The position numbers and the translations under genes were made by a program. Positions 3,292 through 18,090 of a DNA stretch of 20,641 nucleotides are shown here, in pieces. A model generated the notes under the pieces. It had not been told where the DNA came from. It did no database searches and saw nothing but the letters and a program-made list of their open reading frames with translations. Location of the stretch: IMG/VR virus record IMGVR_UViG_2537562190_000023. One strand, written 5' to 3'. The number at the start of each line of letters is the position of its first letter. Position 1 is the stretch's first letter. This DNA comes from a virus (Duplodnaviria > Heunggongvirae > Uroviricota > Caudoviricetes).

Positions 3292-3653
3292 AAATAAAGG
3301 GATAACGATGATAGTTTGAGAAAAACAGAAATAACACTTTTGTGGCAAAGCATGGTGCCGGGTGCCTCCCGGTGAATTCAGTACCAGCACCTGAATCCGC
3401 GATTATCCCATATACCTGGTTGCTGATTGCCCCTCCGCACAGGGGGATTCACCATGCAGTAGTATTTTTAATAAACAGTAAACAAAAAAATCAAGCATTA
3501 TGCAGGCTGTTTCTTTTTATCACCGGCCACAGCAATACCACAATGCCGCAGACCAGCCCCCATCCGCCAGCACCGACATGATTCTGCTGGTGAAATCCAC
3601 CATCACCACCAGAAACAGCAGGAGTGCAGCCACAGCCAGGCGCAGTTTTACCG

Positions 3654-6853: not shown

Positions 6854-7114
6854 TCACTCATCTTCAAAAGCAGAAAAACCAGCCTTAATCCCAGCGTCTT
6901 TCAGAGACGGCAACGATGTGACAAATTCATTTGCACGCAAAATAAAACCATCCGTCACAAGCCCATCCACAAAATGAATTAACGCAGCTCCACTCTTCCT
7001 TTGTTGAGACTGTAAACATTTAATACGGCAGTGGCTGACAATAGCGCCATTCTCAACGCGCACAGTATAGAGGCCATCTTCACTAAAAATTTCACGTAAT
7101 TCTTCGATTTTCAT
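6854..7114 (-). CDS. Hypothetical protein, 86 aa (position matches rem of Qin-type prophages)
   Basis: ATG at 7114 (MKIEELREIF...) with SD GGAAGGA. Lies between the hok locus and the DUF968 gene, as in the hokD-rem-ydfU order of Qin as I recall it. Confidence 0.5.
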   Translation of the reverse strand: MKIEELREIFSEDGLYTVRVENGAIVSHCRIKCLQSQQRKSGAALIHFVDGLVTDGFILRANEFVTSLPSLKDAGIKAGFSAFEDE

Positions 7115-7230
7115 CAACAGAATCCTTCCAGATAAATAGCACTCCCCTGTTCGGGGTCCATCCCTCTTCTCCCTGCGCGCTACTTAAGTATTTTTGATTC
7201 TATTCCGGCGCCGTCCGGAACTTCAAACGC

Positions 7231-7266
7231 GTTGAAAATAAAAACAAAAACCCGCCGAAGCGGGTT
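7231..7266 (-). terminator. Rho-independent terminator at the 3' end of the hok mRNA
   Basis: Minus-strand hairpin AACCCGC-UUCG-GCGGGUU (7-bp stem, plus 7249-7266) followed by UUUUUGUUUUUAUUUU (plus-strand A-run 7231-7248). Confidence 0.55.
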
Positions 7267-7334
7267 AAGTGCGGGTGCGTTGAGGATGCCTGACACATCA
7301 GAGGTGGCGAGGGATTTCTCCCCCGCCTGGTCTC

Positions 7335-7490
7335 TTACTCCTCAGGTTCGTAAGCTGTGAAGACAGCGACCTCCGTCTGGCCGGTTCGGATTCGTACCTC
7401 GCAGAGGTCTTTCCTCGTTACCAGTGCCGTCACTATGACGGTTAAACAGATGACGATCAGGGCGATTAACATCGCCTTTTGCTGCTTCAT
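7335..7490 (-). CDS. hok: Hok/Gef-family type I toxin, 51 aa; an in-frame upstream extension to 7547 forms a mok-like leader ORF
   Basis: MKQQKAMLIALIVICLTVIVTALVTRKDLCEVRIRTGQTEVAVFTAYEPEE is a canonical Hok/RelF-type sequence (single TM helix, conserved Cys, acidic C-terminus). The 70-codon ORF 7335-7547 starts at ATG 7547. Confidence 0.85.
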   Translation of the reverse strand: MKQQKAMLIALIVICLTVIVTALVTRKDLCEVRIRTGQTEVAVFTAYEPEE

Positions 7491-7534
7491 AGCCTGCTTC
7501 TCCTTGACCTTTCGGTCCGTAAGAGGCAATCTAT

Positions 7535-7590
7535 ATGTGACGAGCATATAGGGGCCTCACTTCGATTTATAGTCGGGTGGGGCTTTTATC
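7535..7590 (+). ncRNA. Predicted Sok-like antisense RNA overlapping the mok translation-initiation region
   Basis: Plus-strand TTGACC at 7504-7509 could serve as a -35. A possible terminator hairpin (CCUCAC/GUGGGG with one G-U pair, 7556-7582) is followed by CUUUUAUC. The region is antisense to the mok start at 7547. Boundaries are approximate. Confidence 0.3.
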
Positions 7591-7792
7591 TATCTGCCGT
7601 TGGTGTTCATGCCCGAGGCAGATAGCCTCAAGCACCCGCAGCAATTCTACTTAACTCTGCCGTTACAGCAAGCCGTTTTCGTCCGATATGGGAATTCCCA
7701 TATCGGAATGAATTCAGTTCACCTGGCGAGGCTTAGCGTACAATTTTTTCCGTTTTGTGAGCTGCCCCTACATGCCGCTGGCGCGGCATCCG

Positions 7793-7828: not shown

Positions 7829-8587
7829 TCAAGTGCCTTTCCTGGTCCAGCCATATTTTTTGAATGCAGGCGCCGCTTCATCGGTTTGTAGCCATTCTGC
7901 AAATCGACGGGTTTCATCATTTGCATCCTGACGTACTGTAATGTTCATATCACGCCATATCACGTAGTCTGGCGCTATTTCCACGACATCACCAATTTCT
8001 GGATTACTGGCTGCCCAGTCAGCCCAGGTTATCCAGACATCTGCTTCAGGCTGATTCTCAAGAGCCTTACGTGCAGTTCCGCTATTGGGCGCATATAAAA
8101 TAATATTTTTTCGGATTGCGGCGACAGTTTCTATATTCCCTTTACGTCCGGCAATATCTTCCCAGACGCCAGTGCCTGATGTATTACTGGTACCACCACC
8201 ATCATTAACAATTACGCCAATCCCGGGTCTGGTCAGGTCGTCAATACTCCGGATATTTTTAGGATTACCTTTCTTTACCAGTAAAATACTTTTTCGCAGA
8301 TAAAGAGGCTGAATATCTTTTTCACTGAAGCTGTCTTTATGGTCCCGAATGATAGCCAGAGCAGATTGTTCTGATGCGCCAAACAAGATATCTGCATTTT
8401 TTTTGGCATCTTCATTCCATTTGTTCTGTGGGCCGTAATGAACGTTCACTATAATACCTGTTTTTTCGGCATAAAGTTTGGCTGCATCAAGCAAGGCTGT
8501 ATGCGGGCCACCAGGACCATACAGATTGATATCAGCATAAGCAGCAGAAGACAGGAATATTAAAAAACCTGCCATTATGTTCCTCAT
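7829..8587 (-). CDS. Periplasmic substrate-binding protein of the ModA/AcfC-like family, with signal peptide; orphan (no permease or ATPase partner in the window)
   Basis: 252 aa. N-terminal signal peptide MRNIMAGFLIFLSSAAYA. Sequence pattern fits ModA/TupA/AcfC-type binding proteins as recalled. Strong SD AAAAGGAG. The flanks are visibly AT-rich. Confidence 0.7.
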   Translation of the reverse strand: MRNIMAGFLIFLSSAAYADINLYGPGGPHTALLDAAKLYAEKTGIIVNVHYGPQNKWNEDAKKNADILFGASEQSALAIIRDHKDSFSEKDIQPLYLRKSILLVKKGNPKNIRSIDDLTRPGIGVIVNDGGGTSNTSGTGVWEDIAGRKGNIETVAAIRKNIILYAPNSGTARKALENQPEADVWITWADWAASNPEIGDVVEIAPDYVIWRDMNITVRQDANDETRRFAEWLQTDEAAPAFKKYGWTRKGT

Positions 8588-10891: not shown

Positions 10892-11720
10892 GGTTTACCC
10901 CCTTGCTGACTGGTTTAACCTGCGCCCTGACGTGATTTACGTGACGGGCGAATTTCTGCTCCCACTGAACCTGCGTAAACACTTTCCCCTCCGCTGCCCA
11001 GTAGTCCCGGAATGCGGCAAGTTCAGCAGGTGTGAATTCTGTCTCCGGCAAAGCCATCCCCCACAACGCAGCCCGTCGTCGAAAATCCCGTGACGGATAC
11101 CAGTTATCGGTCATCGGAAATTTTCCGATGGGTTCGCTCAGGCCATCCAGGAATACAGGGGGGACTGCCTGTAACGACAAAACTTCCTGCTCACTGGTCG
11201 GAGCACTCTCGCGTGCGTTATGTGTGGGGTTTAAATCTTTGGGTTCCTTTGGGTTCCGTGATCCGTTTTTGGGTGTCTTTGATGGAAAATTTGGGTGTCT
11301 TTGGTTATTTTCCATGCAGCAAAGAGTTCCGTTTTTGGGGCTGTTTTGTGCTGAAACATAACCGTTTTCGGTTCTGTTTTTATTAACAGTACCAATTTTA
11401 CCTACCTTTAAAGACTCCCGTTTTTGGGTGTATTCATCCTCGGTAACACTTTCTTCAACACCGATAAGTCGGTACACCACAATTTGTTTTGTCCGGCCTT
11501 TTCTCTCACCGGTATCAACAATTAACCCAATCTCCATCAGGTGTCGTAAGCTGTCCTGCACAGTCTTTTTGTTCAGTTCCGTTACTTCTGCCAGTGCAGA
11601 TACAGACGGGTATGCACACAAATCGGCACCGCACATATCAGCAAGCCAGGTCAATACTGACTTACTGGATGAACTGCCGGTTTTCACCTTTTTAGCCCAT
11701 CGTAGCGCATCGATACTCAT
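10680..11720 (-). CDS. Replication initiation protein (lambda O-like): N-terminal HTH, low-complexity linker encoded over the iterons
   Basis: ATG at 11720 (MSIDALRWAKK...). N-terminal HTH typical of phage initiators. The linker NKNRTENGYVSAQNSPKNG... is encoded by the iteron DNA, as in lambda O. The six-frame track's earlier start at 11795 is TTG. Confidence 0.6.
   Translation of the reverse strand: MSIDALRWAKKVKTGSSSSKSVLTWLADMCGADLCAYPSVSALAEVTELNKKTVQDSLRHLMEIGLIVDTGERKGRTKQIVVYRLIGVEESVTEDEYTQKRESLKVGKIGTVNKNRTENGYVSAQNSPKNGTLCCMENNQRHPNFPSKTPKNGSRNPKEPKDLNPTHNARESAPTSEQEVLSLQAVPPVFLDGLSEPIGKFPMTDNWYPSRDFRRRAALWGMALPETEFTPAELAAFRDYWAAEGKVFTQVQWEQKFARHVNHVRAQVKPVSKGVNHAAAPGGTASRAVQEIRAAREQWERENGFISDGNGLEAVGAHGGGLFEPLDPEERGRTFEALDCTDWRDD
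11237..11435. repeat. Iteron array (candidate origin of replication) inside the initiator gene
   Basis: Six or more copies of a TTTGGG core (consensus about CCGTTTTTGGGTGTCTTTG) at 11238, 11248, 11268, 11290, 11334 and 11423, spaced at roughly 10, 20, 22, 44 and 89 bp (near helical-turn multiples). Confidence 0.55.
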
Positions 11721-12243
11721 ACGAACCCCAGACAGATATTTGTTTATCTGCAAAGTAATGTTGGTATTGCTGACGATACGCACGCTTGAAAGCAATAGCT
11801 TTTTCTATAAGTTCGTCAGTCTCACGTTCCACAACAGCTGGATCCGCAAAAAGTAGCCCTGACTCCACCACATCGCCATATTCTTTGTTTAACCCGGCGA
11901 TCATGTACGTAATGCTTTTTCCGTCAGTAATTTCACGATACAACCTGAAATCACTGATCCGGATAGCCGCCATAATTGCCGGAATCAGCGCCGTGAATTT
12001 TTCCCGCTTATCCCTGGTGTCGATAGATTTCCAGCGTTCGAATATCTTCACCCGGTTAACGCCCAGCGCCCGTTGATCAACCGCGCCATCATCAAACGTG
12101 ACGCGTTGAACATCGATGTTCGGGCGTTCTTTCAGAGCCCAGAATGCTTCCGTGATTAATATCGTCGCCTGCTCCTGTGTCATTCCTGGTCGGCATACCC
12201 AGGCATCCAGAGCCTCACAAACCTGTTCAGGGGTGATTTTCAT
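11692..12243 (-). CDS. YdaT-like protein at the cII position, 183 aa (assignment tentative)
   Basis: ATG at 12243 overlaps the 3' end of the Cro-like gene. Position downstream of the Cro/YdaS-like gene matches the cI-YdaS-YdaT modules of Rac and CP-933P. Sequence identity to YdaT was not verified. Confidence 0.45.
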   Translation of the reverse strand: MKITPEQVCEALDAWVCRPGMTQEQATILITEAFWALKERPNIDVQRVTFDDGAVDQRALGVNRVKIFERWKSIDTRDKREKFTALIPAIMAAIRISDFRLYREITDGKSITYMIAGLNKEYGDVVESGLLFADPAVVERETDELIEKAIAFKRAYRQQYQHYFADKQISVWGSYEYRCATMG

Positions 12244-12454
12244 TGTTCAACCGCCCCGCCCGCTTTGCCTTACGATATTCGTCATAAACTTTGGGGTCGT
12301 ACTGAAGTTCCCCGCCGGATGCCTCTTGCAGGCGCATCGCGCGACCTTCAGGAACCAGTTCCCCCCATGCAGCAATGCTTGCCAACCTAACTCCTGCGGC
12401 ATTGGCAAGCTTTGTTTTGCTGCCAAAAAACGCTATAGCATCAATTTTCAACAT
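12227..12454 (-). CDS. Cro-like small HTH regulator (YdaS family-like), 75 aa
   Basis: Divergent from the repressor. SD AGGAG 6 nt upstream of the ATG. HTH pattern KTKLANAAGVRLASIAAW. Confidence 0.6.
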   Translation of the reverse strand: MLKIDAIAFFGSKTKLANAAGVRLASIAAWGELVPEGRAMRLQEASGGELQYDPKVYDEYRKAKRAGRLNNENHP

Positions 12455-12530
12455 ATCGAGCTCCTTAGATTTTCCTAAGGAAACTAGATCGTAGAGAAAC
12501 CTAAGTCAAGAAAAATTAGAATTCCCTAAT
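12455..12530. promoter_or_regulatory. OR-like divergent promoter/operator region between the Cro-like gene and the repressor
   Basis: Inverted repeat CCTTAG-N6-CTAAGG at 12463-12480. The 15-bp element GTAGAGAAACCTAAG at 12491-12505 overlaps a minus-strand -35 TTGACT. Plus-strand -10 TAGAAT at 12517-12522 places the start site at the repressor ATG (leaderless, no SD). Confidence 0.5.
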
Positions 12531-12938
12531 ATGAAAAACGAAACCTTCGGTGCTCGCCTCTTACATAGGCGTAAAAAATTAAAACTGTCTCAGGCCGCAT
12601 TAGGTAAGCTGGTCAAAGTGGCTCACGTAACAATTTCTCAATGGGAAAGAGATGAAACACAGCCGGCGGGGAAAAGATTATTCGCACTGAGCCAAGCGCT
12701 TCAGTGCTCACCGACTTGGCTTCTTTTTGGGGATGAAGATAAACAACCAGGCGAACCGATCCCGAATAATCAGCCAGCCATTCTGACAGAAGATCAAAAA
12801 GAGTTACTTCAACTGTTCGACGCACTGCCTGACTCAGAGCAAAAGGCCCTGTTGTCAGAGATGCGTGCTCGAGTTGAAAATTTCAACAAACTTTTTGAAG
12901 AACTACTTAAAGCTCGCAAAAGAAGCGCAAACAAATAA
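12531..12938 (+). CDS. Prophage repressor, XRE-family HTH, 135 aa, no S24 peptidase domain (cI functional analogue)
   Basis: N-terminal HTH (LKLSQAALGKLVKVAHVTISQWERDETQP). Divergent from the Cro-like gene. Flanked on both sides by the same operator motif. Too short to carry a LexA-like autocleavage domain. Confidence 0.75.
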   Translation: MKNETFGARLLHRRKKLKLSQAALGKLVKVAHVTISQWERDETQPAGKRLFALSQALQCSPTWLLFGDEDKQPGEPIPNNQPAILTEDQKELLQLFDALPDSEQKALLSEMRARVENFNKLFEELLKARKRSANK

Positions 12939-12989
12939 CCCCTTTTTTCTCCACACCCTGTAATAAAAAGCACAAACTTTCAAACACTT

Positions 12990-13062
12990 GTGTTTTTTAC
13001 ACCAAAAAACTTAGGTTTTTCTACATAAGAATCTTGACCATATGCCTTAGGTTATTCTAAAT
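12990..13062 (+). promoter_or_regulatory. OL/pL-like operator-promoter downstream of the repressor gene
   Basis: CTTAGGTTTTTCTAC at 13010-13024 is a near-identical copy of the OR element (reverse complement of 12491-12505). A second CCTTAGG at 13045-13051. -35 TTGACC at 13034-13039 with a weak -10 17 bp downstream. Confidence 0.4.
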
Positions 13063-13139
13063 TTCACTCATCAAGACACCGCACGGTGTTCTCAGCAAAC
13101 AGTTCCGCTACTCCGGCGTTAAGGGGAAATGAGGTCAGC

Positions 13140-13295
13140 ATGGATACTATCGATCTTGGCAGCAACGAATCTCTGGTGTACGGCGTGTTCCCAAACCAGG
13201 ACGGCACGTTCACCGCGATGACGTATACCAAAAGCAAAACGTTTAAAACCGAAAATGGTGCCCGTCGCTGGCTGGAAAGAAACTCAGGTGAGTGA
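13140..13295 (+). CDS. Hypothetical early protein, 51 aa
   Basis: ATG at 13140 with GAGG 5 nt upstream. First ORF after the pL-like promoter. The six-frame ORF begins earlier at a GTG. Confidence 0.4.
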   Translation: MDTIDLGSNESLVYGVFPNQDGTFTAMTYTKSKTFKTENGARRWLERNSGE

Positions 13296-13299
13296 TATG

Positions 13300-13407
13300 G
13301 ATTTCGACACAATCATGGAAAAGGCTTACGAAGAATACTTCGAAGACCTTGCCGAAGGCGAAGAGGCTCTCAGCTTCAGTGAGTTTAAACAGGCGCTTTC
13401 CAGTTAG
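13300..13407 (+). CDS. Hypothetical small acidic protein, 35 aa
   Basis: ATG 5 nt after the previous stop. MDFDTIMEKAYEEYFEDLAEGEEALSFSEFKQALSS. Below the ORF-track length cutoff. Confidence 0.3.
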   Translation, partial: DFDTIMEKAYEEYFEDLAEGEEALSFSEFKQALSS

Positions 13408-13454
13408 GCAAAATCTAACGGCTGATAAGCGAAACAGCACCGCGAGGAATCAGT

Positions 13455-13694
13455 ATGCATAAACGAGAACCCGTCATCATCGCGCCAGACTATACCGATG
13501 ATGAACTTTATGAGTGGATGCGCCAGAAAATTAATGCAGCGCAGGATCTGAAATGGGCCAATGAAGCCAGGGCTAAGCAGGCTGAAAAATCTGTCCGCTC
13601 TGGAGCAGGATATCACCAATTTGGAAAAAGCAGCGGCATTAAGCATTGCCAGAATGATTACATACCCGCGTTAATAGCTAACCAACGAGGATAA
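13455..13694 (+). CDS. Hypothetical early protein, 79 aa as read; possible frameshift near 13585
   Basis: Strong SD GAGGAA 5 nt upstream of the ATG. The N-terminal 45 residues look protein-like. After an A5 run the +1 frame encodes a more helical-looking tail (LSALEQDITNLEKAAALSIARMITYPR). Confidence 0.5.
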   Translation: MHKREPVIIAPDYTDDELYEWMRQKINAAQDLKWANEARAKQAEKSVRSGAGYHQFGKSSGIKHCQNDYIPALIANQRG

Positions 13695-13724
13695 GGTTGG
13701 TAATTAAGGAGTTCTCTACGGGTC

Positions 13725-13762
13725 AGGTGGAGTGCGTGCGCCGGACACGGGTGAGCATCCGG
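13725..13762 (+). terminator. Candidate plus-strand intrinsic terminator closing the first early-gene block
   Basis: Bulged hairpin CGTGCGCCGGA / TCCGGCACG (13725-13756) followed by TTCTTT. Confidence 0.4.
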
Positions 13763-13809
13763 CACGTTCTTTAAAAATCTGGATAGTCCCAACTTATTTA
13801 AACGGTTAA

Positions 13810-14154
13810 TTATCTTGAGTTCATCCAGAACTTATTATTGCAAGCGGGGCAAAAAGTACGAAAATGAGCATCAAAGCGCATTATTTCCATTGGTTGCAGT
13901 ACAGATATTACCTTTTTTCCAAAACATTGTGGGCAAAGATGCACTGTTATCTCGGTATCGCCTATAAATTGCTTCTTGGAATACACAAGAGTTCCAGAAT
14001 CAAGCTTGTTAAGTTTGTAACCTTCCGCCTGTTGCTGAAAGTCTTCTATCTCTGCAATTTTTGCTTTGAGAGATGCGGCTTCTTCCTGATAAGAGCGCAC
14101 CATCTCAATGAGCGATACGCATTCAAACTGAACAGACGTAAGTTTTGAAAGCAT
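13810..14154 (-). CDS. Antisense-oriented zinc-ribbon protein, 114 aa (coiled-coil N-terminus, CPQC-x22-CPAC)
   Basis: Protein-like composition with a predicted coiled coil (EEAASLKAKIAEIEDFQQQAEGY) and a C4 zinc ribbon. Lies on the strand opposite to the surrounding early operon, in an AT-rich stretch. No obvious SD before the ATG at 14154. Confidence 0.55.
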   Translation of the reverse strand: MLSKLTSVQFECVSLIEMVRSYQEEAASLKAKIAEIEDFQQQAEGYKLNKLDSGTLVYSKKQFIGDTEITVHLCPQCFGKKVISVLQPMEIMRFDAHFRTFCPACNNKFWMNSR

Positions 14155-14280
14155 ATCGCTGACAGCGGAATTTATCTCAGTTTGAGTTTTGCATTCAGAA
14201 TACCCTTTGCCATTACCGCAGTTTCTTTGATTGCCGACATTGCTGCTGAGAACTCAACTATCACGTTACATACTCTTCTC

Positions 14281-14324
14281 GTTGTTGGGGATATCCAGAT
14301 TATACAAATTTCTTGTTGTTGGGG
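14281..14324 (-). promoter_or_regulatory. Candidate promoter for the zinc-ribbon gene, flanked by a 10-bp direct repeat
   Basis: Minus-strand perfect -10 TATAAT (plus 14299-14304). Exact direct repeats GTTGTTGGGG at 14281-14290 and 14315-14324, one on each side of the -10. Confidence 0.35.
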
Positions 14325-14806
14325 AATAACAGGAACCACCTCGCCTGACGTGGTTAAAAGCAGGCACACAACGCGAAAGCGTACGGCGAGGTAGCTGGTT
14401 CATAGATAGCCTGTCGTTAAATTTTCGTCGACCGTGCGCTTCCGGTTGTGGCAGTCCGCGAAATGGCGCGGCGGTAAGTATGGCTGGGGTTTCCTCCATT
14501 GCTCCAGAAAATGCACCGGGTTGTCAGGTTGACCATACGCTTAAGTGACAACCCCGCTACAACGCCCTCTGTTATCAATTTTCTGGTGACATTTGGCGGT
14601 ATCAGTTTTACTCCGTGACTGCTCTGCCGCCCTTTTTAAAGTGAATTTTGTGATGCGGTGAATGCGGCTAAGCGCACGCGGAACAGTTAAAACCAAAAAC
14701 AGTGTTATGGGTGGATTCTCTGTATCCGGCGTTAATTGTTAACTGGTTAACGTCACCTGGAGGCACCAGGCACTGCATCACAAAATTCATTGTTGAGGAC
14801 GCGATA

Positions 14807-14995
14807 ATGGAAACGTTATTACCAAACGTTAATACGTCTGAAGGTTGTTTTGATATTGGAGTTCTGCTCAGTAACCGGGAGTTTACTGAAGATGCCATTA
14901 AGATGAGAAAATATGAACCTTATCTTCTTAATGATAATTCCATACTTTCCAGAATTGCCCTTCTTGAACTTGGTATTATCGGAGAACAGCAGTGA
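14807..14995 (+). CDS. Hypothetical protein, 62 aa
   Basis: ATG at 14807 with SD GAGGA 7 nt upstream. The six-frame ORF starts at an upstream GTG. Confidence 0.4.
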   Translation: METLLPNVNTSEGCFDIGVLLSNREFTEDAIKMRKYEPYLLNDNSILSRIALLELGIIGEQQ

Positions 14996-16876: not shown

Positions 16877-17764
16877 TCAGGCTGCCAGATCATCGTTTCC
16901 GATGGAAGCATAATAAGCTTTTTCTGCTTCTGCCGGGGGAGTATGGCCCAGCCTTTCCAGCAATCGTCGATTGTTATACCAGTCCACCCACGTGAGTGTG
17001 GCCAGTTCCACTTCTGCACGGTTTTTCCAGCTCTTACGGTGTATTACCTCCGCTTTGTAAAGACCATTGATGCTCTCCGCCATCGCGTTGTCATACGAGT
17101 CGCCAGTACTCCCTGTTGATGCCAGTAATCCGGCTTCCTTAAGCCGCTGCGTGTAGGCCAGCGATACATACTGAGAACCTTTATCACTGTGATGGATTGT
17201 GCCGGACGGCCGACGGGCCCACAACGCCTGCTCCAGTGCATCCAGCACGAATGTTGTTTCCATGGATGATGAGACCTGCCATCCCACGATGTATCCGGCG
17301 AACACATCAATGATGAACGCCACATAAACGAAGCCCTGCCATGTGCTTACCCAGGTAAAATCAGCCACCCACAACTGGTCTGGACGTTCTGCCACGAACT
17401 GACGGTTTACGCGGTCGCATGCGGCAACGGCTTTCCGGCTGACGGTAGTGCGGACCTTTTTACCCCGGAGAACACCGGCAAGTCCCATAACCGCCATGAG
17501 ACGTGCCACAGTGCATCTGGCCACTCTGATACCTTCCCGTAACAACTGACGCCAGACTTTACGCACACCGTATACCTTGTGATTTTCATCGTATACGCGC
17601 TGTATCTCTTTCTTCAGCCAGTCATCGCGCTGCGCACGGGCACTGCGTTTATCCGGATAATGTCGCTGTTGCTGACAGTGGTAATACGTTGACGGGGCAA
17701 TATGCAGTTCGCTGCATACCGGTCCGACCCCGTACTGCTCACGCAGCTTATCCAGCAGTGGCAT
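16877..17764 (-). CDS. IS629 transposase OrfB (DDE catalytic domain)
   Basis: 295 aa beginning [29 protein letters not shown] and ending ASIGNDDLAA, matching IS629 OrfB as recalled. ATG overlaps the orfA stop (TAATG). Confidence 0.9.
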   Translation of the reverse strand: MPLLDKLREQYGVGPVCSELHIAPSTYYHCQQQRHYPDKRSARAQRDDWLKKEIQRVYDENHKVYGVRKVWRQLLREGIRVARCTVARLMAVMGLAGVLRGKKVRTTVSRKAVAACDRVNRQFVAERPDQLWVADFTWVSTWQGFVYVAFIIDVFAGYIVGWQVSSSMETTFVLDALEQALWARRPSGTIHHSDKGSQYVSLAYTQRLKEAGLLASTGSTGDSYDNAMAESINGLYKAEVIHRKSWKNRAEVELATLTWVDWYNNRRLLERLGHTPPAEAEKAYYASIGNDDLAA

Positions 17765-18090
17765 TATTTTTTCCAGAGGCGGTCGAACTCCGCCTTCGCA
17801 AAATAAGCGGAAGCCTGGCGAAGGATATCGTTACTGCGGCGCAGTTCACGATTTTCACGTTCCAGCTCTTTCAGACGCTGACGTTCAGCGGTGGTGAGTC
17901 CACCATCACCACTCCCGGTATCCCGCTCATGCTGGCGAACCCAGACACGCAGAGTCTCCGGCGTACAGCCAATCTTTGGGGCAATGGAACAAATTGCCGC
18001 CCACTGTGAGTCATATTCATCCTGACTTTCCAGAACCATACGAATCGCCCGCTGACGGACTTCGGGGGAAAAACGAGTATTTTTAGTCAT
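17764..18090 (-). CDS. IS629 transposase OrfA (HTH / leucine-zipper part)
   Basis: 108 aa [59 protein letters not shown]..., matching IS629 OrfA as recalled. An A6 run sits at the orfA/orfB junction, where IS3-family -1 frameshifting occurs. Confidence 0.9.

Follow-up and report, generated by a model that had tools for sequence, protein, structure and literature searches.

The closest described relative of the locus studied here is the dicA-dicC region of the cryptic prophage Qin of Escherichia coli K-12. In the reports that date from 1986-88 (references 16 and 19 of PMC10448788), dicA/dicC is presented with operators at the dicC and dicB promoters (dicCp and dicBp) and without a RecA cleavage site, and in 1988 the K-12 copy was called "similar to lambdoid bacteriophage immunity loci" (reference 16 of PMC10448788). 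DicA binds the operator Oc in vivo, and replacing a single A by C in the CTAA core suffices to abolish this binding (Yun 2012, PMC3441716). Once bound to Oc, K-12 DicA activates its own weak promoter, and dicC is repressed 700-fold (PMC3441716). Together, DicA and DicC form a bistable switch (PMC10448788). Mitomycin C does not induce the K-12 dicBp, urea or heat induces it without requiring recA or rem (PMC10448788), and it is derepressed 165-fold by the Rem protein of Qin (Ragunathan 2023, PMC10448788). Furthermore, dicA is among only five leaderless mRNAs detected in E. coli K-12 by differential RNA sequencing (dRNA-seq) (PMC4681348); its start, 3 nt upstream of the ATG, was mapped by dRNA-seq and confirmed by RNA ligase-mediated reverse transcription PCR (Romero 2014, PMC4681348, Table S3). 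The present analysis concerns a region (11692-13062) of the virus record IMGVR_UViG_2537562190_000023 (Caudoviricetes), whose whole stretch of 20,641 nt is hereafter called the window. In a preliminary description made from the sequence alone, this region had been presented as a non-lambda immunity module. Our analysis indicates, with high confidence, that it is the DicA-DicC switch governing immunity (lysis-lysogeny) in a lambdoid prophage of Qin type, i.e., an allele of dicA-dicC. The locus is already known, since all the points of interest raised in that description have been published for the K-12 orthologue. Being an allele of a cryptic-prophage switch that was among the first to be described, it carries little weight as a discovery.

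The repressor gene (12531-12938, + strand) encodes a protein of 135 aa that aligns over its entire length (residues 1-135 of 135) with the NCBIfam family NF007257 "transcriptional repressor DicA" (236.4 bits for a cut-off of 101) and that is 61% identical to DicA from K-12 Qin, both proteins having exactly the same length. Its only Pfam domain is HTH_3 (residues 13-64, E = 8e-14), a helix-turn-helix (HTH) domain. The AlphaFold2 model (pLDDT of 86, alignment of 41 homologues) consists of a five-helix HTH domain, a linker (residues 70-86) and two C-terminal helices (residues 87-98 and 101-134). In a Foldseek comparison, the HTH domain of this model superposes on the N-terminal domain of P22 c2 at 0.5 Å, with 62% identity, so that the label "non-lambda" has to be abandoned in favour of a classic lambdoid module. 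The whole-chain analogues found by Foldseek include SinR (with SinI) and the phi106/SPbeta-like phage repressor in complex with AimX, a small antirepressor. A likeness of the C-terminal domain to RovA/SlyA, suggested by Yun 2012, was considered and rejected, as the repressor has neither a MarR-type Pfam match nor a match to such a fold. The gene order around the repressor gene is the same as in K-12 Qin (dicC, dicA, ydfA, ydfB, ydfC, DicF, dicB).

The preliminary description had reported one 15-bp element both in the divergent region and downstream of the repressor gene. This 15-mer, CTTAGGTTTYTCTAC, does occur without any mismatch at both places, 12491-12505 (-) and 13010-13024 (+), and a third copy with two mismatches lies at 13046-13060; 0.02 matches were expected instead of three, and none of 100 shuffles reached three. 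It belongs to a longer dyad of 16-18 bp, CTTAG-N6-CTAAG, five copies of which are found in the window. The proposed OR/OL-like arrangement with a shared operator on both sides of the gene is supported, with five sites instead of two. With at most one mismatch, the dyad gives three matches compared to 0.28 expected, a number reached by none of 100 shuffles. With two mismatches, its frequency over the whole window is at chance level (6 compared to 5.3 expected), five of the six matches being located in two short intergenic regions. When the 10 half-sites are compiled into a weight matrix, T-A-G is invariant (10/10), and the five training sites score from 17.7 to 21.1 compared to 7.8 for the next best site of the window; this ranking is circular for the training sites and only shows the lack of a sixth site.

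Three of these sites, to which no strand is assigned, lie between dicC and the repressor gene. O1 (12463-12480, core 12464-12479), the equivalent of K-12 Oc, is a perfect dyad, CCTTAGATTTTCCTAAGG, without any mismatch, that aligns with Oc, TTGTTAGTCATAACTAACAA; it overlies the predicted dicC start and its centre is at about -57 from the predicted dicA start (about -56 for Oc in K-12), a spacing that agrees with the activation of the weak dicA promoter by Oc-bound DicA in K-12 (PMC3441716). O2 (12489-12506, core 12490-12505), the equivalent of Om, holds the 15-mer, has one mismatch to the dyad and overlaps the -35 hexamer and the spacer of the predicted dicC promoter. O3 (12514-12531, core 12515-12530), the equivalent of Oa, is a variant, ATTAGAATTCCCTAAT, with two symmetric mismatches (ATTAG...CTAAT) that overlaps the -10 hexamer of dicA and abuts its ATG; K-12 and phage mEp460_ev081 (LR597641; mEp460 below) carry a variant site at the same position. 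The two other sites are associated with the dicB promoter. OL-a (13009-13026, core 13010-13025; GTTAGCTATAGCATAC at the aligned position of K-12) holds the 15-mer and is located upstream of the -35 hexamer, and OL-b (13045-13062, core 13046-13061; one mismatch to the dyad; GTTAGTCATGGCTAAT at the aligned position of K-12) is located within the spacer and the -10 hexamer. At the homologous positions, the sites of K-12 are GTTAG-N6-CTAAC. The same five positions are occupied in mEp460 by TTGAG-N4-CTCAA, and the mEp460 repressor, 53% identical to that of the window, differs from it in the recognition helix (SISLWESD in mEp460 versus TISQWERD in the window). Thus, the sites vary with the repressor allele while their positions are kept, which is the strongest in silico evidence that the five dyads are operators. 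A modest reading of these differences is that the CTTAG operators would confer an immunity specificity of their own within the DicA family, apart from that of the GTTAG operators of K-12.

The promoters can be placed relative to these sites. The predicted dicC promoter (12481-12509, -), analogous to lambda PR and read from the sequence, would consist of TTGACT (12509-12504), a 17-nt spacer and TAGTTT (12486-12481). The dicBp-like promoter (13034-13063, +), analogous to lambda PL, was retrieved by a promoter scan (TTGACC, 18-nt spacer, TAAATT; 9/12 consensus positions), and the segment from this promoter to ydfA is nearly identical to that of K-12. For dicA, the -10 hexamer of the promoter analogous to lambda PRM, also read from the sequence, is TAGAAT (12517-12522, +), and the best -35 candidate, GAGAAA (12494-12499), is weak. 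Only 8 nt, TCCCTAAT, separate TAGAAT from the ATG (12531); they include no Shine-Dalgarno sequence, and no start codon is present between the in-frame TAG at 12492 and this ATG. Transcription of dicA is predicted to start at 12528-12529, giving a leader of 2-3 nt. The distance between the -10 hexamer and the ATG is kept within 1 nt (8 in the window, 9 in K-12, 8 in mEp460), likewise without Shine-Dalgarno sequence. This conserved geometry is in keeping with the leaderless start that had been proposed for the repressor gene, the mapped 3-nt leader being that of K-12 (PMC4681348). Downstream of dicA, a weak AU-rich hairpin followed by a U-tract (12964-12999, +; inverted repeat I16; -9.2 kcal/mol, z-score of -3.0) is probably its terminator.

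The preliminary description, which considered that induction may need an antirepressor, had left this protein to be sought elsewhere in the prophage. A rem homologue (6854-7117, -), whose product is 71% identical to Rem from K-12 and 72% identical to Rem from mEp460, is located in the nin region past the terminator of hokD, a gene that rem adjoins as in K-12. It is followed on the same strand by a hypothetical gene, a DUF968 gene, rusA and Q, a layout shared with mEp460 and with PPompW, a complete phage described below. By analogy with the protein studied in K-12, this Rem is a candidate antirepressor of the DicA of the window.

From these data and from the K-12 experiments, the following mechanism can be proposed. 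The DicA-type repressor would dimerise, probably via its two-helix C-terminal domain, and bind the 16-18-bp dyads. Its binding to O1 and O2 would occlude the dicC promoter and keep dicC, the YdaT/CII-like gene, the replication genes, rem and Q silent, and its binding to the two sites downstream of dicA would occlude the dicB promoter and silence ydfABC, DicF, dicB, recE, xis and int. On O1, DicA would activate its own weak promoter, yielding an mRNA with a leader of 2-3 nt and without Shine-Dalgarno sequence. O3 is the likely target at which DicC or an excess of DicA would shut dicA off, making the switch bistable. RecA would be unable to inactivate the repressor because this protein has no S24 domain. 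Derepression would be expected either from an intrinsic instability of DicA or from Rem, whose gene is located about 5.4 kb off on the - strand, further downstream along the dicC/PR direction. The window itself provides the families, the gene order, the five non-random sites, their co-variation with the repressor, the absence of S24 and the Rem homologue; DNA binding, autoactivation, the leaderless start, the action of Rem and independence from SOS are transposed from the K-12 orthologue.

Several points weigh against this scheme. The experimental evidence belongs to the K-12 orthologue and not to the allele of the window, and a Rem 71% identical to that of K-12 acting on a DicA 61% identical to that of K-12 would be an extrapolated pair. 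When Om and Oa were assayed singly, neither was bound by K-12 DicA (PMC3441716); occupancy of O2 and O3 may require cooperativity or belong to DicC. The K-12 papers mention three operators at dicBp, and the weight-matrix scan reveals no third one in the window. The predicted dicC promoter matches the consensus at 8/12 positions, which is under the threshold of the scanner, and this promoter, like the role proposed for O3, is deduced from geometry only.

The genes divergent from dicA had been likened to the YdaS/YdaT pair rather than to cro/cII, which would make the locus a RacR/YdaS/YdaT-type or toxin-antitoxin-like unit, distinct from cro/cII-type control. This resemblance holds for one of the two genes. 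The product (183 aa) of the distal one (11692-12243, -), which overlaps the end of dicC by 17 nt, passes the threshold of the Pfam family PF06254 YdaT_toxin (28.6 bits for a cut-off of 21, residues 59-131) and is named "toxin YdaT family protein" in RefSeq. The only matches of a PDB sequence search are the YdaT structures 8bt1 and 3c4r (E = 0.02). Its sequence places this protein in the YdaT family as a distant member; BLASTP aligns it with YdaT from Rac over only 32 aa (local match, 44% identity). It also belongs to phrog_163, named "CII-like transcriptional activator" (E = 6e-42), and K-12 YdfX is its truncated N-terminal half (89% identity). The proximal gene (12227-12454, -), preceded by a strong AAGGAG Shine-Dalgarno sequence, encodes a 75-aa protein that, on similar grounds, is a DicC/P22-Cro protein and not YdaS. 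It matches the NCBIfam family NF007282 DicC (168 bits for a cut-off of 130), is 84% identical to DicC from K-12 Qin and passes the Pfam P22_Cro threshold (E = 3e-13; 49.7 bits for a cut-off of 30.2), whereas its weak match to the YdaS family (Pfam PF15943 YdaS_toxin) remains under the cut-off (20.4 bits for 30). BLASTP finds no alignment of this protein with Rac YdaS, nor of the repressor with RacR. Furthermore, YdaT from CP-933P is a DNA-binding functional equivalent of CII and not a toxin (PMC9986795). A YdaS/YdaT-type unit is therefore very improbable despite the two Pfam matches and the RefSeq name, and "YdaT rather than cro/cII" was a false opposition because YdaT is the equivalent of CII: the family differs, not the role.

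The two other alternatives to the DicA-DicC switch without SOS control involve DNA damage. A conventional SOS switch would rely on RecA-stimulated cleavage of the repressor, perhaps at Ala46-Gly47. This Ala-Gly dipeptide, the only one of the protein, is indeed present at residues 46-47 but lies within the HTH domain, where Gly47 is invariant for structural reasons, and neither Pfam nor the AlphaFold2 model reveals an S24 peptidase domain or a Ser/Lys catalytic module in the 135 aa. Among the 120 homologues listed out of 295 found, all carry HTH-type Pfam domains only, most have 133-143 aa (besides a few shorter partial sequences and a few proteins of up to 168 aa), none is long enough to hold an added S24 domain, and those labelled with an organism all come from Enterobacterales. 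The lack of room for an S24 domain, already pointed out in the preliminary description, is thus borne out by Pfam, by the two-helix C-terminal domain of the model and by these homologues. Self-cleavage, which that description considered unlikely, would also be at odds, if the K-12 results apply here, with the insensitivity of dicBp to mitomycin C and with its recA-independent induction by urea or heat (PMC10448788). We consider such a switch hardly conceivable. Indirect SOS induction as in Gifsy prophages, in which LexA represses an antirepressor gene and DNA damage triggers induction, has some points in its favour: DicA is included in the GfoR/GtgR family of short repressors (PMC3121763), rem is placed like the dinI-antirepressor locus of Gifsy, i.e., downstream of the replication genes and with a terminator before it, and the window contains one perfect CTGT-N8-ACAG, TTCTGTTTTTATTAACAGTA (11374-11389). 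However, no LexA box, even with one mismatch, is present between the hokD terminator and rem (7118-7270). The perfect box, which has an AT-rich centre and matches 15/20 positions of the LexA consensus, falls within the O-like replication gene at a distance of 4.2 kb from rem and may be meaningless, since about 0.3 perfect boxes are expected by chance (20,641 × 4^-8). Over the whole window, the number of boxes with at most one mismatch does not exceed chance (10 compared to 6.6 expected), and none of them is near rem or the immunity region. The absence of a LexA box before rem is consistent with the SOS-independence of K-12, where mitomycin C leaves dicBp uninduced (PMC10448788). Altogether, a Gifsy-like induction of this DicA-DicC switch is highly unlikely.

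A binding site of the 183-aa protein was also searched for. The operator pattern of YdaT, TTGATT-N6-AATCAA, with at most three mismatches, has 15 matches in the window compared to 13.8 expected. The single positional candidate, GTGATTTTCATTGTTCAA (12233-12250, three mismatches to a pattern that is not above chance), is located where dicC stops and the ydaT-like gene begins, a position equivalent to that of the operator of YdaT in CP-933P and internal to two overlapping coding regions. It is unchanged in four loci, though the coding overlap covers the site, and is retained as a lead only. A related repeat, TTGATCAACCGC, is found at 12073-12087. Another structure, a 13-nt inverted repeat with a 16-nt spacer, CAATGCTTGCCAA (12373-12385) and TTGGCAAGCTTTG (12402-12414), was noticed in the HTH-coding part of dicC. 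It was considered as a site of the CII-like protein near a PRE-like -10 hexamer (TATAGC, 12434-12439) and rejected: present in the allele of the window and in PPompW, it is not conserved in K-12 or mEp460 despite YdaT-like proteins about 90% identical to that of the window (91% for mEp460). On the 3′ side of the ydaT-like gene, the next genes (-) are a DnaT-domain O-like gene, a lambda-P-like gene and a DUF1627 gene.

The region upstream of rem includes the hokD terminator (7266-7249, -) and, directly after it, a speculative candidate promoter of rem, TTGAAG-N18-TAGAAT (7197-7226, -), proposed from the promoter and terminator scans. Its hexamers are invariant in four loci (window, K-12, mEp460 and PPompW), and its spacer is a perfect 18-bp palindrome, TTCCGGACGGCGCCGGAA (7203-7220). 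As a conserved operator, this palindrome was rejected, because no locus besides the window and PPompW has it in perfect form, those of K-12 and mEp460 showing two non-compensating changes. It is unlikely that a host or prophage regulator binds it; if this were the case, this regulator would be the missing non-SOS input into the induction of Qin-type prophages, the trigger of Rem being an open question (PMC10448788). For the control of rem, this promoter-like element, with its palindromic spacer, offers a weak lead. A type I toxin-antitoxin locus, hokD/sok (7335-7637, -; Rfam sok, 104 bits), directly precedes rem, as it does in K-12 Qin. Between hokD/sok and the replication genes, a fimbrial pseudogene and the gene of the adhesin Paa (paa, 7829-8587) are present as cargo. 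In the late region, between the antiterminator gene Q and a SASA-family esterase gene, the window also encodes the small RNA STnc100 (3317-3483, -; Rfam, 102 bits).

On the other side of the switch, the operon expected to be repressed (13140-14995, +), delineated from Pfam, Rfam and RefSeq, includes ydfA (13140-13295; Pfam DUF1391), a ydfB-like gene (13297-13407), ydfC (13455-13694), the small RNA DicF (14581-14632, +; Rfam, 77 bits for a gathering score of 48) and dicB (14807-14995), dicB and ydfA being annotated as such in a near-identical genome (RefSeq). The ydfC homologue (13455-13694, +) is a 79-aa open reading frame (ORF) that is open to its stop in the window and that RefSeq reports as "frameshifted" in two near-identical genomes. 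Between ydfC and DicF, a 114-aa ORF (13810-14154, -) with CxxC...CxxC motifs, absent from K-12 Qin, belongs to phrog_1244, a family of unknown function (E = 3.5e-38), and has no match in Pfam or NCBIfam; it may be a moron or accessory gene. The intact dicB (14807-14995, +) is followed by a DUF1482 gene and by recE, which is split by an IS3-family element including an ALIL frameshift pseudoknot (17693-17809).

The 1.6-kb region is 100% identical to chromosomes of E. coli O103:H2 and is covered at ≥80% in 749 of 5,426 complete E. coli genomes. The genomes that carry it have up to seven matching places (median of one), four or five places being listed for those of O103:H2 type. Several matching places per genome imply that a single cell harbours several DicA-type immunity regions, so that repressor/antirepressor cross-talk between alleles may occur, as described for Gifsy prophages. 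The whole window matches the O103:H2 strain PV16-126 at 99.9%, between a truncated ydfJ and rspB, i.e., at the attachment locus of the cryptic prophage Qin in K-12. In this strain, the element keeps the lysis, Q, rusA, replication, immunity, recE, xis and int genes and carries a capsid fragment, insertion sequences and effector genes, but it has no head or tail genes. This prophage is therefore defective, and the question of the inducibility of a lysogen is moot, as the prophage of the closest matching genome lacks structural genes.

If the CTTAG specificity is truly separate, it could let several DicA-type prophages coexist in one enterohaemorrhagic E. coli genome. The alleles of the window, K-12 and mEp460 constitute a natural series of matched repressor/operator variants that could serve to study the specificity of P22-C2-like HTH domains. 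The identification also has value for annotation, since RefSeq labels the repressor only as "helix-turn-helix domain-containing protein" and, as for the CII-like gene, this labelling hides the function. Furthermore, the intact order dicC, ydaT-like, O, P ... rem shows the former state of the degraded Qin of K-12, in which ydfX and ydfW are remnants.

Compared to the known systems, the most distant ones, SinR/SinI from Bacillus subtilis and the SPbeta-like repressor with AimX, share with the DicA of the window an HTH domain followed by a short helical C-terminal domain and a small-protein antagonist. The analogy is purely structural (18-23% identity, high root-mean-square deviation, different phylum), with no sign of common descent of the C-terminal domains. 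The PaaR2/YdaS/YdaT region of CP-933P and the RacR/YdaS/YdaT region of Rac are, like the locus studied here, lambdoid immunity regions in which a YdaT-family protein replaces CII; however, the repressor and the Cro-like protein of the window are unrelated to theirs in sequence, its YdaT-like protein is only distantly related, and the CP-933P YdaT site is not above chance in the window. Gifsy-1 and Gifsy-3, with GfoR/GftR and GfoA/GftA, resemble the window by short repressors without cleavage domain, in a family that lists DicA, and by small antirepressors (Lemire 2011, PMC3121763). They differ by antirepressor genes placed behind a LexA box beside a dinI homologue, no such box preceding rem in the window. 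With P22 C2/Cro, the window shares the HTH domain, a Cro-like gene matching P22_Cro and a divergent OR with three sites, whereas C2 has 216 aa and a RecA-cleaved C-terminal domain in place of the helical domain of about 50 aa.

The closest relatives belong to the Qin type itself. In mEp460, the layout is the same, including the YdaT-like gene, rem, DicF and dicB, but the divergence of its repressor and operators makes it likely heteroimmune. PPompW (O145:H28, LC5678xx), whose regulators are annotated dicA/dicC, is 95.4% identical over 96% of the region. Both are complete phages, in contrast with the closest genomic match of the window. Compared to the DicA/DicC/Rem region of K-12 Qin (Bejar, Bouche et al. 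1986-88; PMC3441716, PMC4681348, PMC10448788), the window has an extra 114-aa gene on the opposite strand between ydfC and dicF, keeps an intact YdaT/CII-like gene and O/P replication genes, and carries CTTAG instead of GTTAG half-sites together with a repressor only 61% identical, which possibly confers a different immunity specificity. Nevertheless, both regions encode the same NCBIfam DicA and DicC families and share the chromosomal locus ydfJ-rspB, the three intergenic operator positions and the dicBp operators, the geometry between the -10 hexamer and the ATG of dicA, and the location of rem beside hokD.

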